Source: a virus (taxonomy: Duplodnaviria; Caudoviricetes). From it: a stretch of 64,000 nt of DNA. Below the pieces are notes generated by a model, which had not been told where the DNA came from, did not search any database, and worked only from the letters and a program-made list of their open reading frames with translations. The DNA lies in the IMG/VR virus record IMGVR_UViG_3300032038_000011, positions 1 through 64,000 of that record; one strand, given 5' to 3'. Both the position numbers and the translations under genes were made by a program. Of this stretch, positions 1 through 4,393 are shown piece after piece; position 1 is the stretch's first letter, and each line of letters starts with the position of its first letter.

Positions 1-28
1 TACTCCTTTATCTCCTTTTAAATTATAG

Positions 29-104
29 TGGAGCGTCCTAGCGGTGCTGCCCCGCTTAACAATGGTTTTGCAGACCACGCCGTTTGCTGATTCGGTAAGG
101 ACGC
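29..104 (-). tRNA. tRNA-Cys(GCA), atypical T loop
   Basis: Cloverleaf GCGTCCT...AGGACGC-T-CCA, anticodon loop CT-GCA-AA, U73; T loop GGCAGCA. Confidence 0.8.
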
Positions 105-704
105 ATTAATGCATATCATTATAAATATTCAATAAACAACCTACAATAGCCAAAATATTTATTGGTACTACCCACCAATGTTGTGCATAAACATTAAGCC
201 CTAAACAAAAACTATTTAATATCATTAATATAACCCAAAGCATATATTATCTCCTTTCTCTAATCATATCTCTAATTGCGCACAATGATGAAAAAAGACA
301 AACAGCAAGATTAAGACCACGAATATAAATATTTCCATTTTGATTAATATAAAAGATAAAAAGATTAAGTGTTGCAAAAAGAATATTAATCATTACCATG
401 CTCCATATCTGTTATAAAAACCATAGCCCAAGCTAATACATATACAGCCCAATATTGCCAAGTTGTCGCACTAAAGCTAATGCTTTCCATAATAAAAAGT
501 ATTGCCATTCCACAAACAATTCGTGCGATAGAATATCTAGTCATTTACATTTATTCTCCTATAAATTTCTAACGTAACTGCTTCCATTGCTTTATCTGCA
601 TCAATAGCTTTTTCTGAAAAAGGATTTTCACAATAATCTAAATAAGCCCTAGTGTAATAATACATATCAAGTAAAACAAAAATACTATAATTTTCTAAAT
701 CCAT
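105..704 (-). CDS. Run of 3-4 short (about 45-55 aa), mostly hydrophobic hypothetical ORFs, e.g. 386..544
   Basis: Hand translation, GGAG RBS upstream, overlapping start/stop codons; below the ORF-track cutoff. Confidence 0.5.
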
Positions 705-724: not shown

Positions 725-801
725 TGGTGGGTGCCTTGGGATTCGAACCCAAGACCACTTGTTTATGAGACAAGAGCACTAACCAACTGTGCTAGACACC
801 C
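725..801 (-). tRNA. tRNA with CAT anticodon (elongator Met or Ile2)
   Basis: GGGTGTC...GGCACCC-A-CCA, loop CT-CAT-AA, TTCGAAT T loop; lacks the initiator three-GC anticodon stem. Confidence 0.9.
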
Positions 802-812
802 ATAAATCTCGC

Positions 813-1224
813 GGTTTCTTCTCCTATTGGCATCTTCTGGGCCTCAATCCATCGGAGCCGCCACTCGATTTCGCCGCGAGTCTCACGTGGGAATACCTAC
901 GCCCGCGAAGCGCACATCCCCTAAAACAATGTGCCTTTCTACTCTTGGTTCACATACCCTTCGGGTACCTCAACTCTCATTACGCAGGAATATCGCGGCT
1001 GACACTAACGAGTTCAACTTCCGTTAGACTGACACCTTATTGCCTTACGACGTAATCTAATCGCCGAGCGAATCTTATGCGTATTCCGGACTACCTTACG
1101 GAGTAAGAGAACTCCCGGCGTTCTTTGATGGCGAACACATAATATAAGTTCTGCTTTCCTTATATTATTAGCCACAACCACTCCTTTTTATTGTCGCGAC
1201 AAAAGGATTTTTACAGGAGGAACC
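813..1224 (-). ncRNA. Candidate large structured ncRNA (~410 nt) between tRNA-Trp and tRNA-CAT
   Basis: GC-rich, many hairpins, complementary ends (GGTT-C-CTCCTGT / ATAGGAG-AAG-AAACC), no credible ORF. Confidence 0.6.
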
Positions 1225-1229
1225 TAAAG

Positions 1230-1300
1230 CAGGAGTTTAAGGATTTGAACCCTAACTTTGAAGGTTGGAGCTTCACGTGCTACCGTTACACTAAACTCCT
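1230..1300 (-). tRNA. tRNA-Trp(CCA)
   Basis: AGGAGTT...AACTCCT-G, loop CT-CCA-AC, TTCAAAT T loop. Confidence 0.9.
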
Positions 1301-1339
1301 ATATTAGGTGAAGGTTTATTTCCCTCACCTTATGTATAT

Positions 1340-1368
1340 ATTATAGCAAAATTTTAGATAAAAGTCAA
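1340..1368 (-). promoter_or_regulatory. sigma-A type promoter driving tRNA-Trp, the ncRNA and tRNA-CAT
   Basis: TTGACT-N17-TATAAT. Confidence 0.85.
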
Positions 1369-3896
1369 GTCTTTTTACTTGTTAAAAACATAATAACTAA
1401 TATCGCAAAACCTATTAAAGCCATAAAATAATTTTCTATTGGAACTTCATCTCCAGTTTGAAACATGCCATATAATGGAGTTTCATAACCCCACATATCA
1501 AATAACTCTTCTAATTCTTCATCAGTAAATTGAGAAAAATCTGGTCGATTTGGAACTGGTTCAGGTAAGTTTCCTAAAATTTCCCCAATTATTTCCGGAG
1601 AAAGAGTTGGCTTTGGAGTCGGAGTAGGACTTGGAGTTGGAGTAGGTGTAGATAAATCTATTATAATAACTGATTCTTCAGTTGGAGTAGGTGTAGGTGT
1701 TGGAGTATTAGTTGGAGCAAGAGTTTCAGATATTGTTGGCGTAGGTGTAGGCGTTTCTGTTGGCTTTATTGTCCCAGTAGGAGTTGGCTCTGGAGACTTA
1801 CTTGGTTTAGCTGTAATAGTCGGCTGTGCTGTTGGAATTACAGTAGGTTTATCTGTTGGAATAATAGTAATAGTTGGTGTAGGACTTGGTTTTGTTGTAG
1901 GGCTTGGAGTTGGTGTCGGTTTTGTAGTAGGTTCATTTGTAGGTTTTATTGTTTCGGTAGGTGCGAGAGTAGGTCTTGGAGACTCACTAGGTTTTCCAGG
2001 GGTAACTGTGACAACTGGTGTATCAGTTGGTTGTATTGTAGGAACTGTGGTGGGTTCAACTGTTGGAGTGGATGTGGGATTGGGAGTAGGCGTTGTAGTC
2101 GGTGCTTCTGTTGGCTTATGTGTAGGTTCCTCCGTAGACGTTGTTGTTGGAGTTGTAGTTATCTCCGGCGTAGGAGAAGGAGTTGGAGTGACTGTTGGAA
2201 TAGGAGTTACTGTAGGCTTTATAGTAATAGTTGGGGTAGGAGTAGGTGTTTCTGTAGGCTTTATAGTTACCGTAGGCACAGTCGTTGGTAATGGAGGAGG
2301 AGTAGATGGCTGTGCAGTTGGTGGAGTAATTATCTCATTTACATATTCTACCTCTACCGTTTCTCCATCGACAATATTAACTATAGAAGTTGTGCCTTTA
2401 ACCTCACTGCTACCAAATACCGTAATAATATAATCATTAAGACTTACATCTTCTTTAATTTCATGTGCGCCGGGCAATACATCTTCTAATTCAAGATATT
2501 GTCCCGCTACAATAGGATATGGTTCTCCGTCAATATAAAATGTAAAAGTTGGCGGCGCAACATATGGAACACCACTGTGATACCATCTTTGATTACCATT
2601 CCAAGTAACCCAATAAATTCTTTCTCCTGGCTTTACTGTAGTAATATCTTTTTGAATTTTAAAGTTCTCTTTATATAATTCAACCTTATCAGTCATTTCT
2701 GGTTCTAATTCTCCCCAACCAGAGAATCCTAAATCTTGCGGCGAATATACTTCTTCGAATATCATGGTAGGAAGTGTGCCGCCAGTTGCGCCAGATTTTA
2801 TTTCGTCCATTCTAAATGGGGTACCATTATTATCGAGCCATATAATCCAATGGTCGGCATCGCCGCACTTATTAGACCTATGTCCTTCTCTACTTGTTTT
2901 TTTAGTTGGATTCATAATAACATCAGTTTTCCATATTCCGCCACCAGCATGAAAATCTGTGCCGTCCATAACATCACAACGAATATGCCAAACATCATTT
3001 ACTAATGTCTTTTGTAGAATAATTTTACCTGGCGCTGGTGTCGCTGTTACAGTTGGAACTGGTTTTGTAATTTTTGGTTCCCAATAGTTAATATGTGCTT
3101 CTCCATGTGCGGTAATGTTCCATCCTACAATAGTTCCGCTATGATTACATGAAGTAATATTTATATCTGCAAATGGAGCAATTAGATGACCGGCTAAGCC
3201 GCCCATATCTACTTTAGACGCATTCGTCCAATATATTTTTTCAATATGCTCTTGAGTTTCATCGCTGCCTTGAGCTTGATAATCCCATTTAGCTAAATTA
3301 ACATAGCCATTTTCGTCTGGCTCGACATAAATCCAATGTTCTCCATCGTTAGGAAATGAATTTATTATGCTAATCCAGTAATCTCTTGTAGATTTAACTG
3401 CGGCCGCACTTAATTTTTTATAAGCATCTTTGCTTTGATTTTCTGTACGACCTTGAAAATACATTTTAGATTCATTATTAAAAACGTAACTTTCCGTTCC
3501 TGAAGGAGTATGATTGATTGAACCGTCGTCTGTGCCACACCAATTATTACTTGTAAGTGTACCGCCAATCCACAAAGAACCTCGAATATGCATATCAATA
3601 AAAGCATCATTTAATGCTATTATTGAATAACCAACCATATTAGATAATTTAACATTAAAATCATGTTCTTCAATAGGTTTTATTTGCACGTCCACTTCTT
3701 CTGAATTGTTGGTTTGGATTTCTTCTGTAAAAACTAAATTTAAATCCAAATCTAAATTTAAATCTTCATCTTCATCTTCTATAGGAAGAATAATGTCTAT
3801 TGGCTCTTCTATTTCTAATTCAAGTTCTTCAGAAAAACTTGGAAATATAAAAAATAAAAAGGCCAATAGTATAAAACATACTATACCCTTTTTCAT
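1365..3896 (-). CDS. Secreted, cell-wall-anchored surface protein: signal peptide, choice-of-anchor-A-like domain, long Pro/Thr linker, QTGD + TM + basic tail
   Basis: MKK + hydrophobic N-terminus; GHLIAPFADI...GEAH motif; (TP)n repeats; C-terminal QTGDE...TM...KKT. Confidence 0.7.
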   Translation of the reverse strand: MKKGIVCFILLAFLFFIFPSFSEELELEIEEPIDIILPIEDEDEDLNLDLDLNLVFTEEIQTNNSEEVDVQIKPIEEHDFNVKLSNMVGYSIIALNDAFIDMHIRGSLWIGGTLTSNNWCGTDDGSINHTPSGTESYVFNNESKMYFQGRTENQSKDAYKKLSAAAVKSTRDYWISIINSFPNDGEHWIYVEPDENGYVNLAKWDYQAQGSDETQEHIEKIYWTNASKVDMGGLAGHLIAPFADINITSCNHSGTIVGWNITAHGEAHINYWEPKITKPVPTVTATPAPGKIILQKTLVNDVWHIRCDVMDGTDFHAGGGIWKTDVIMNPTKKTSREGHRSNKCGDADHWIIWLDNNGTPFRMDEIKSGATGGTLPTMIFEEVYSPQDLGFSGWGELEPEMTDKVELYKENFKIQKDITTVKPGERIYWVTWNGNQRWYHSGVPYVAPPTFTFYIDGEPYPIVAGQYLELEDVLPGAHEIKEDVSLNDYIITVFGSSEVKGTTSIVNIVDGETVEVEYVNEIITPPTAQPSTPPPLPTTVPTVTIKPTETPTPTPTITIKPTVTPIPTVTPTPSPTPEITTTPTTTSTEEPTHKPTEAPTTTPTPNPTSTPTVEPTTVPTIQPTDTPVVTVTPGKPSESPRPTLAPTETIKPTNEPTTKPTPTPSPTTKPSPTPTITIIPTDKPTVIPTAQPTITAKPSKSPEPTPTGTIKPTETPTPTPTISETLAPTNTPTPTPTPTEESVIIIDLSTPTPTPSPTPTPKPTLSPEIIGEILGNLPEPVPNRPDFSQFTDEELEELFDMWGYETPLYGMFQTGDEVPIENYFMALIGFAILVIMFLTSKKT

Positions 3897-4226: not shown

Positions 4227-4230
4227 ATAA

Positions 4231-4392
4231 AGTGCGGAGTAGTCTATTATGGTATCAAGCCCCTCCGCCGAGCTACTCTTATCTCCCCGAGTCGGGCATA
4301 ATAGACTATTGCGAACTTGCGGTCTATTAGCGCGGCACCTTTAATTTCAGGTCTATAATCAGCCTTACGCCGCAGGTCTGTATCTGCGGAAA
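4231..4392 (-). ncRNA. Unassigned structured spacer RNA between tRNA-Arg and tRNA-Tyr
   Basis: 11-bp stem AGTCTATTATG/CATAATAGACT plus CCGCAG/CTGCGG hairpin, GC-rich. Confidence 0.35.
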
Positions 4393-4393
4393 A

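Follow-up and report, generated by a model that had tools for sequence, protein, structure and literature searches.

What is the GC-rich segment that separates two tRNA genes near one end of a 64,000-nucleotide stretch of phage DNA (Duplodnaviria, Caudoviricetes; positions 1 to 64,000 of the IMG/VR record IMGVR_UViG_3300032038_000011, hereafter "the window")? The window starts at the first base of this record, which is 136,935 bp long and estimated to be 80% complete, and 12 tRNA genes were detected by ARAGORN and Rfam on the minus strand within its first 7.3 kb. A preliminary description, made from the letters and a list of open reading frames (ORFs), had placed an ornate RNA between two of these genes and considered it either a short relative of the GOLLD and ROOL RNAs or a new class released by tRNA processing. 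The notion of a new class is borne out by covariation, by the lack of an ORF and by the lack of any matching Rfam family. On this comparative evidence, the segment belongs to a family of non-coding RNA, 400-450 nt in length, that had not been catalogued before; its architecture, supported by the aligned homologs, comprises at least 12 helices and four short-range pseudoknots.

Locus and transcription unit

The GC-rich stretch between two tRNAs is real, with ARAGORN tRNAs on both sides and a G+C content of 47.1% in 802-1228 as compared to 33.2% window-wide. Its boundaries had been given as 813-1224, but the actual unit spans 802-1228 and lies on the minus strand (Table 1). The RNA adjoins the discriminator base of tRNA-Trp on one side and the +1 base of tRNA-Met(CAU) on the other, with a 0-nt spacer at both junctions; its termini are UUUAGG (5') and GAUUUAU (3'). 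Positions within the RNA are numbered as p = 1229 - window coordinate, so that position 1 is window 1228. The minus strand is taken as the functional strand because it carries both the tRNAs and the promoter, and because G-U pairs conserved at fixed positions (UG in 24, GU in 23 and GU in 21 of 27 homologs) would be A-C on the other strand.

The RNA had also been described as lying downstream of a perfect promoter. A promoter is indeed present, but it is not perfect (11/12 matches), and it is located 5' of tRNA-Trp, where it serves the tRNA-Trp/RNA/tRNA-Met unit; it follows the sigma-70-type consensus. The order of the unit, all on the minus strand, is promoter, hairpin, tRNA-Trp, RNA, tRNA-Met and small ORFs. 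No terminator-like site was found 3' of tRNA-Met, and small reading frames start about 20 nt further on. Four tiny ORFs (45-55 aa) follow tRNA-Met at 106-704 (minus strand) with no intervening terminator. Three of them are hydrophobic and membrane-peptide-like, and all seem to be co-transcribed with the tRNA/RNA unit.

Homologs and their distribution

Contigs from IMG/VR and JGI metagenomes were searched with the motif AAGGTAGTCCGG and a second block, ATGGATTGAGGCCC(R)GA(R)G, followed by an nhmmer filter. This gave 27 distinct full-length homologs and several truncated ones, all on uncultivated phage or metagenome contigs. The full-length homologs range from 401 to 452 nt and have identities of 53-97% (median 68%), with 81 invariant columns in their alignment. 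All are located in tRNA arrays, most of them with zero-nt tRNA junctions: the 3' end adjoins a tRNA that is usually tRNA-Ile(UAU) or tRNA(CAU), some being intron-bearing or suppressor tRNAs, and the 5' end mostly follows tRNA-Trp, tRNA-Thr or tRNA-Ile(GAU) with no spacer.

Searches in other collections were negative. A blastn search of 50,697 deposited phage genomes (INPHARED) gave no match to the RNA. In the genomes of 185,579 prokaryote species, one per species, a conserved 19-mer of its 3' domain had only chance matches, none of them in the context of a homolog. A second structural pattern had two matches in IMG/VR, both by chance, and no homolog was present among 80 loci retrieved via a neighbouring HNH-like protein. 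The covariance model R1 (127 positions, from the 5' core) matched nothing in 17 other large phage records, while both positive controls were recovered. The family seems to be restricted to a single lineage of uncultivated phages with genomes of roughly 170-185 kb.

The tRNAs directly 3' of the RNA are often unusual (L214:1969-2062, L235:4340-4427, L213:2680-2766, L088 at about 2659-2780, and L152:991-1141). Some tRNA-Ile(UAU) at this place are 87-94 nt long with a long extra arm, introns are predicted in others (45 nt in L088; a 151-nt Rfam tRNA match in L152), and that of L152 is an amber-suppressor-type tRNA(CUA). In the divergent homologs L015 (2180-2219), L236, L214, L235, L243, L084 and L205, a T-arm and a 3' acceptor strand are present just 5' of the RNA (for example, GAAGUUCAAAUCUUC-AGAGGG), and ARAGORN calls no tRNA there; this element looks like the 3' half of a tRNA or an inside-out tRNA-like element.

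Fold of the RNA

Folding of the single sequence was modestly better than that of shuffled sequences (z = -3.1); the strong evidence for the fold is comparative and does not come from single-sequence energy. An all-column-pair covariation scan was followed by formal counts on the 27-sequence alignment A3. Over the 93 proposed pairs, 87.4% of the cells were paired, compared to 38-46% when the 3' partners were slid by 1-3 columns. Pairs changed on both sides numbered 55, as opposed to 36 +/- 2.7 in shuffles (0/500 reached 55) and 18-28 in the slid controls. Collecting homologs and examining covariation had been proposed at the outset as a check for this RNA, and the 27 homologs contain covarying helices. 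The fold presents a conserved junction of 32 nt, together with the conserved 19-mer and a number of conserved loops (Table 1).

Table 1. Coordinates and pairing of the RNA, its parts and its flanking elements (PK, pseudoknot; all on the minus strand of the window)
Feature	Window coordinates	RNA positions	Strand	Remarks
Promoter, sigma-70-like, TTGACT-17-(TG)TATAAT	1340..1368		-	11/12 matches; TG before -10 hexamer
Leader hairpin, promoter/tRNA-Trp interval	1306..1330		-	-13.7 kcal/mol, z = -4.3
tRNA-Trp(CCA)	1229..1300		-	ARAGORN; no encoded CCA
Whole RNA	802..1228		-	427 nt; fills tRNA-Trp/tRNA-Met gap exactly; conserved end to end in 27 homologs
P1/P1a hairpin	1182..1207		-	Stem covaries: UUG/CAA, CUG/CAG, CCUU/AAGG, CUUG/CAAG
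PK1, linker UGGU (1177-1180) with P3 loop GCCA (1129-1132)	1129..1180	49-52/97-100	-	96% paired
P2 hairpin, 10 bp	1139..1168	61-70/81-90	-	97.8% paired; 8/10 pairs covary
P3 hairpin	1118..1138	91-96/106-111	-	94% paired; loop forms PK1
P4 hairpin, loop UUCUCUU	1099..1117	112-118/125-130	-	99% paired; CG to UA and other compensatory changes
J4/5, UAAGGUAGUCCGGAAUAC..CA.AAGA.UCGCU	1067..1098		-	Most conserved stretch, invariant columns; includes P4b
P4b hairpin, 3-bp covarying stem	1081..1094	135-137/146-148	-	Closes invariant 8-nt loop GUCCGGAA
P5 hairpin	1048-1066	163-167/177-181	-	99% paired; loop forms PK2
PK2, P5 loop UUAGAU (1055-1060) with GUCUAA (1024-1029), strand before P6		169-174/200-205	-	90% paired; 5/6 covary
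P6 hairpin	1009-1023	206-208/218-220	-	99% paired; loop forms PK3
PK3, P6 loop GUUGA (1014-1018) with 3' flank UCAGC (998-1002)		211-215/227-231	-	99% paired; 5/5 covary
P7 hairpin	983-997		-	Loop forms PK4
PK4, P7 loop (988-991) with 3' flank (973-976)		238-241/253-256 (in window)	-	94% paired in 10-sequence sub-alignment A4
P8 hairpin, TACC-CGAA-GGTA	955-967		-	About half of cells paired in 27-sequence alignment
P9 hairpin, conserved 17-nt loop AACCAAGAGUAGAAAGG	930-954	275-278/296-299	-	Six stem variants
P10 hairpin	889..921	315-319/327-331 (inner part)	-	93% paired; 5/5 covary
P11, CUCGCGG (874-880) with CCGCGAG (808-814)	808..880	349-355/415-421	-	98% paired; encloses 3' domain
19-mer, AUGGAUUGAGGCCC(A/G)GA(A/G)G	834..852		-	In all four otherwise different versions of 3' domain
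tRNA-Met/Ile2(CAU)	725..801		-	ARAGORN; CCA encoded

In the 5' half, the apical loop of P1a (UCGCGA, 1194-1199) is a 6-nt palindrome, and its core (U/G)CGCGA is present in 27/27 homologs. Three of the four PK1 pairs changed on both sides, with the variants UGGU/GCCA, CUGU/GCAG, ACGU/GCGU and CAGA/UCUG. The hairpin TAATATAAG/CTTATATTA of the preliminary description is P2, which is conserved and covarying; its A-rich loop carries AG(C/U)AGAA. The P4b loop, GUCCGGAA, holds another palindrome, UCCGGA, in 27/27 homologs, and its stem varies at 136:147 (UA 22, CG 4, UG 1) and 135:148 (GC 17, CG 3, AU 1, GU 3). A compensatory change in PK2 is found in L083 (CCUAA/UUAGG). Of the hairpin noticed earlier as CTAACG/CGTTAG, the inner pairs are those of P6, conserved and covarying, but the outer pairs compete with PK2.

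Further downstream, 4/5 pairs of PK4 changed on both sides in A4 (AGCAU/AUGCU, AGCCU/AGGCU, AGUGC/GCACU and GGCU/AGCC), and this pseudoknot is weak in the window's own subtype. The hairpin TACC-CGAA-GGTA, also noticed earlier, was retained as P8 in spite of its poor counts (about half of the cells), which are attributed to the bad alignment of the variable region by MAFFT. The six stems of P9 are all Watson-Crick: AUGUG/CACAU, CUGCA/UGCAG, GUGCC/GGCAC, GUAUC/GAUAC, AUGCC/GGCAU and AUACU/AGUAU. A helix GCACAT/ATGTGC proposed in this region is not conserved; it is specific to the window, and its bases belong to the covarying P9 and P10. The 7-nt loop of P10 (UUCGCGG, 903-909) has the palindromic core CGCG in 26/27 homologs and CUAG in L015. 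P11 is nearly invariant, with one compensatory change from G:C to A:U in L202, and the 3' domain that it encloses exists in four different versions, all retaining the 19-mer. As the 19-mer had served as a search pattern, its presence in every member is partly ascertainment. The pairing of the two ends of the RNA, claimed earlier, is a feature of the window's minimum-energy fold alone, and three of the four variants of the 3' domain do not keep it.

Three other pairings were tried and rejected. Pairing of CUCUU in the P4 (Hd) loop with AAGAG of the P9 loop is inconsistent in register; pairing of UCCGG in loop 4b with CCGGA of the 19-mer conflicts with five sequences that carry CCAGA; and for an intramolecular kissing of L1a (UCGCGA) with L10 (CGCG), the flanking bases have no covariation and the CUAG of L015 breaks the pairing.

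Known RNA families and coding potential

Scanning the window with all 4227 families of Rfam 15 (cmscan) returned only tRNAs at gathering thresholds. At E<=10, an 851-nt slice gave no match inside the RNA, nor did seven diverse homologs at E<=1 give any in theirs. The Rfam scan advised at the outset thus found no family, including ROOL, RNase P and tmRNA, and the early remark that motifs of RNase P, tmRNA and group I introns are absent agrees with ARAGORN, the Rfam scans and the RNase P model search. In the latter, RNaseP_bact_b (RF00011) matched nothing in the whole record at E<=10, and the controls responded; neither RNaseP_bact_a nor RNaseP_bact_b matched in the scans with the full Rfam library.

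RNase P RNA had been suggested by the CR-I-like sequence AAGGUAGUCCGG and was rejected, there being no model match and the motif being a hairpin loop. For RNase P, the criterion used here is a long-range P4 helix between CR-I, GAGGAAAGUCC, and CR-V. The similar sequence in this RNA, GGUAGUCCGG, is a loop closed by the covarying 3-bp stem of a local hairpin, and no CR-V partner exists; a possible AGUCC/GGAUU pairing is invariant across the homologs. As for tmRNA, ARAGORN finds none, no short tag-ending frame is conserved, and the ends of the RNA are not acceptor-like. A group I intron was dismissed for want of an Rfam match, the flanks being two complete tRNAs and the RNA ending in AUUUAU. Group II introns, HEARO/omega RNAs, 6S and SRP RNAs likewise had no Rfam match at E<=10.

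Could the segment encode a protein instead, either from its longest open stretch, an antisense frame of 88 codons (plus strand, 789-1055), or as a sense-strand peptide? Open stretches of 51-129 codons are present in 27/27 homologs, antisense in 24 of them. However, where the genome is AT-rich, a GC-rich island is expected to have frames with few stops. Substitutions in the antisense frame are even over the codon positions (1.33, 1.27 and 1.39 per column; p = 0.84), so there is no codon periodicity, and every homolog has 1-9 frame-breaking indels, not multiples of three, relative to the window. The sense frames have a median of nine stops per frame. A coding gene is hardly conceivable here, and the description of the segment as non-coding stands on its stops, its aperiodic substitutions and its indels.

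Relation to ROOL, GOLLD and drum

Four complete relatives of 169-184 kb (G001, represented by the locus L266, and those represented by L261, L263 and L264) each carry a ROOL RNA (298-331 bits, E 1e-71 to 1e-79) on the same strand as the RNA studied here and 13-16 kb downstream of it. In G001, the only island scanned in full, about 30 kb hold at least 24 tRNA matches, the RNA, a drum RNA (RF02958, 70.8 bits) and ROOL, the last two at L266:2098-2209 and L266:7120-7688, respectively. To judge from these genomes, this is a lineage whose phages collect several orphan structured RNAs. With the ROOL model (RF03087, threshold 99.1 bits), neither the window nor the full 137-kb record yielded a match at E<=10, the relatives' ROOL genes being the positive control. 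The place that corresponds to ROOL is beyond the start of this contig, and truncation explains why the gene is lacking here.

Might the RNA nevertheless be homologous to ROOL or GOLLD, as a shortened and highly diverged form? The habitat is shared, as are the genomes and the link to phage tRNA islands, and its P9 loop (GAACCAAG.G.AGAA) briefly resembles the start of ROOL. However, the similar bases are a helix strand and an internal loop in ROOL and a hairpin loop in this RNA, and the model that scores the relatives' true ROOL so highly is silent on it. Comparison of the RNA with ROOL of the same lineage by nhmmer --max, the maximum sensitivity, gave no match, and blastn gave only chance words of 7-12 nt; a predicted RNA-ROOL duplex was no better than in shuffles. 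As the two coexist in one genome and share no detectable similarity, the RNA is, by these comparisons, a separate class accompanying ROOL and not a short ROOL. The earlier notion of a short relative of GOLLD or ROOL was therefore abandoned, and homology of this kind appears very improbable.

The two also differ in other respects, even though they share phage genomes and strand (ROOL, RF03087; Weinberg et al. 2017, PMC5737381). ROOL is about 580 nt long and this RNA about 430 nt (401-452 in the family). Unlike ROOL, it consists mostly of serial hairpins, and its four pseudoknots are all local, from a loop to its flank. It abuts tRNAs without a spacer, whereas the relatives' ROOL is about 650 nt from the nearest tRNA, and its distribution is far narrower. 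GOLLD (Weinberg et al. 2009) resembles it in being large, ornate, phage-borne and tRNA-adjacent, sometimes with an embedded tRNA, and assembles through kissing loops (bioRxiv 10.1101/2024.12.08.627333). However, GOLLD is about 800 nt long and has an unrelated architecture. The GOLLD profile is distributed by Rfam (bioRxiv 10.1101/2024.12.08.627333). It gave no match in the whole-Rfam scans, run at E<=10 on the window and at E<=1 on seven homologs, although the GOLLD model was not run alone.

Predicted excision from the tRNA precursor

Precursors of tRNAs lacking an encoded CCA are handled by RNase Z, and tRNA 5' ends are made by RNase P. We propose that the RNA is transcribed on the minus strand from the strong host-type promoter, within the tRNA-Trp/RNA/tRNA-Met(CAU) unit. 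A host tRNA 3' endonuclease, of the RNase Z type given that no CCA is encoded in the upstream tRNA-Trp, would process the 3' end of tRNA-Trp and thereby make the 5' end of the RNA. An RNase P cut at the 5' end of tRNA-Met(CAU) would make its 3' end. The released RNA would begin with a 5'-phosphorylated UUUAGG and end in GAUUUAU with a 3' hydroxyl. Since the RNA touches both the discriminator of the upstream tRNA and the +1 base of the downstream tRNA, excision with defined ends is expected, and the gene layout makes it likely that tRNA-processing enzymes carry it out.

There are precedents for such release. The tRNA cluster of phage T4 produces stable RNAs (species 1 and 2, rnaC/rnaD) of about 120-140 nt with simple folds, which are not tRNAs, are co-transcribed with tRNAs and are processed from tRNA precursors. 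Compared by description only, they resemble the RNA studied here as non-tRNA RNAs inside a phage tRNA cluster. In the mitochondrial punctuation model and in MALAT1/mascRNA, flanking RNase P and RNase Z sites set the ends of an RNA; here, as judged from the layout only, the ends would be set by two full, probably functional phage tRNAs.

Mode of action and alternatives

Once released, the RNA would act in trans, as a structured RNA particle made beside the phage tRNAs. Three conserved apical loops are self-complementary: UCGCGA (L1a), UCCGGA (P4b) and CGCG (L10). These palindromic loops are unable to pair within themselves and are not paired with one another, and the only natural change in the L10 core, CGCG to CUAG in L015, is likewise self-complementary. 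They could join copies of the RNA into a dimer or a higher oligomer, as in OLE, ROOL and GOLLD. Self-association is favoured because loop contacts of this kind commonly hold together natural RNA homodimers as well as the assemblies of OLE, ROOL and GOLLD. The former are usually joined by palindromic pairing and kissing loops (PMC12990946), and the latter are RNA-only assemblies with kissing-loop contacts, as seen by cryo-electron microscopy (bioRxiv 10.1101/2024.12.08.627333). The OLE dimer, the HYER1/5 dimers and the phi29 prohead RNA ring (PMC12990946) share with this RNA the self-complementary sequences in apical loops. However, there is no homology to any of them and no packaging-motor or intron context, and for this RNA an oligomer is only predicted. 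We put homo-oligomerisation through palindromic kissing loops forward tentatively, as a possibility that is more doubtful than probable. A third independent class of self-assembling phage RNA (dimer, ring or cage), or a co-assembly with the ROOL cage, seems unlikely. The explanation taken whole, namely a new RNA family, excised by tRNA enzymes, that acts in trans as a self-associating particle, is on balance probable, if narrowly so.

Several points weigh against this explanation. The palindromic loops are invariant save in one sequence, which means that covariation cannot address pairing between molecules. Two 6-nt palindromes would arise by chance in about 7% of cases (a rough estimate from about 29 six-base free-loop windows), and the single change from CGCG to CUAG would stay palindromic by chance about 1 time in 5. 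RNA positions 232-300, which are variable, and the 3' domain are only partly resolved in the fold. In addition, the family is shallow, coming from one phage lineage, and its invariance may partly reflect recent common ancestry.

Three other roles for the RNA were weighed. It might be a scaffold or sponge, with its junction and loops as binding sites for a protein of the phage or the host, such as an enzyme of tRNA repair or modification, a defence nuclease or a ribosomal protein, and would then work as a ribonucleoprotein or a decoy. This would be consistent with the long conserved unpaired segments, with the motif AG(U/C)AGAA in the loops of both P2 and P9, with the genome's heavy investment in tRNA end-repair enzymes, and with the fact that OLE and drum RNAs have protein partners. 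However, no protein gene is consistently adjacent across the homologs, where the neighbours are tRNAs and variable genes, and no known protein-binding RNA motif was recognised; we consider this role improbable. A ribozyme acting on tRNA precursors, on split or permuted tRNAs of the same island or on itself would be in keeping with a size, a pseudoknotted core and a large number of conserved junction nucleotides that are typical of large ribozymes, in an island that has split, intron-bearing and oddly shaped tRNAs. Against it, no model of RNase P, group I, group II or small ribozymes matches, the CR-I-like AGUCC is part of a hairpin loop, not of a long-range helix of the P4 type, the 3' boundary lacks an omega-G, and the flanking tRNAs are complete, so that ordinary host enzymes account for the processing. 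Catalysis is accordingly given little chance.

The RNA could also work in cis, as a spacer of the tRNA operon, its structure doing no more than stabilising the polycistronic transcript or setting the order in which the neighbouring tRNAs and the small ORFs downstream are processed. A tRNA, in most cases tRNA-Ile(UAU) or tRNA(CAU), always follows it immediately 3', and in the window no terminator separates the unit from the small ORFs. However, four pseudoknots and 81 invariant columns far exceed what a spacer needs, and the RNA stays constant while the identities of the flanking tRNAs vary (Trp, Thr or Ile upstream; Ile, Met, suppressor or intron-bearing tRNAs downstream). A role restricted to cis is therefore quite unlikely, and the trans-acting particle is the reading we prefer.

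Neighbouring features

The phage encodes a Thg1-like enzyme, a polynucleotide-kinase-like (PNK-like) protein, an Rnl1-like RNA ligase and a nucleotidyltransferase. The nearest cultured phages with a Thg1-like gene are Bacillus phages of about 155 kb (44% protein identity), and as far as these comparisons reach, no close cultured relative exists. Inside the tRNA region, an 843-aa protein with long Pro/Thr-rich repeats and an adhesin-like domain (PF20597) is encoded at 1365-3896 (minus strand). Between tRNA-Arg and tRNA-Tyr there is a GC-rich spacer of 167 nt (4227-4393, minus strand), which is only 5 nt long in the relative L014; it has four copies of AUAGAC(C/U) and is not unusually structured (z = -0.45). 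The GC-rich segment at 28-104 (minus strand) has, by eye, a tRNA-Cys-like anticodon arm (CUGCAAA), an acceptor-like stem and a non-standard T loop. It is called by neither ARAGORN nor Rfam, and relatives have a tRNA-Cys(GCA) near there. In G001, a Cys-rich 319-aa protein is encoded about 1.3 kb downstream of the tRNA flanking the RNA (L265:14146-15105, plus strand); its 191 relatives are scattered over unrelated phage contigs, which suggests a mobile, homing-endonuclease-like gene.

Significance

Large, intricately folded RNAs of unexplained function in bacteria and phages are, to our knowledge, only a handful (OLE, GOLLD, ROOL and raiA). To these, the present work adds a class of about 430 nt with four pseudoknots that resides in the tRNA island of ROOL and, in at least one relative, together with drum. 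It offers a second, independent handle on the role of such islands during infection and a compact new target for structure determination, for which the fold is a concrete and testable structural prediction. If its ends are confirmed, the RNA would be a clean natural case of a non-tRNA RNA excised by the tRNA-processing machinery in a phage. If co-assembly with ROOL were true, these phages would possess a multi-RNA, protein-free machine built around their tRNA supply.

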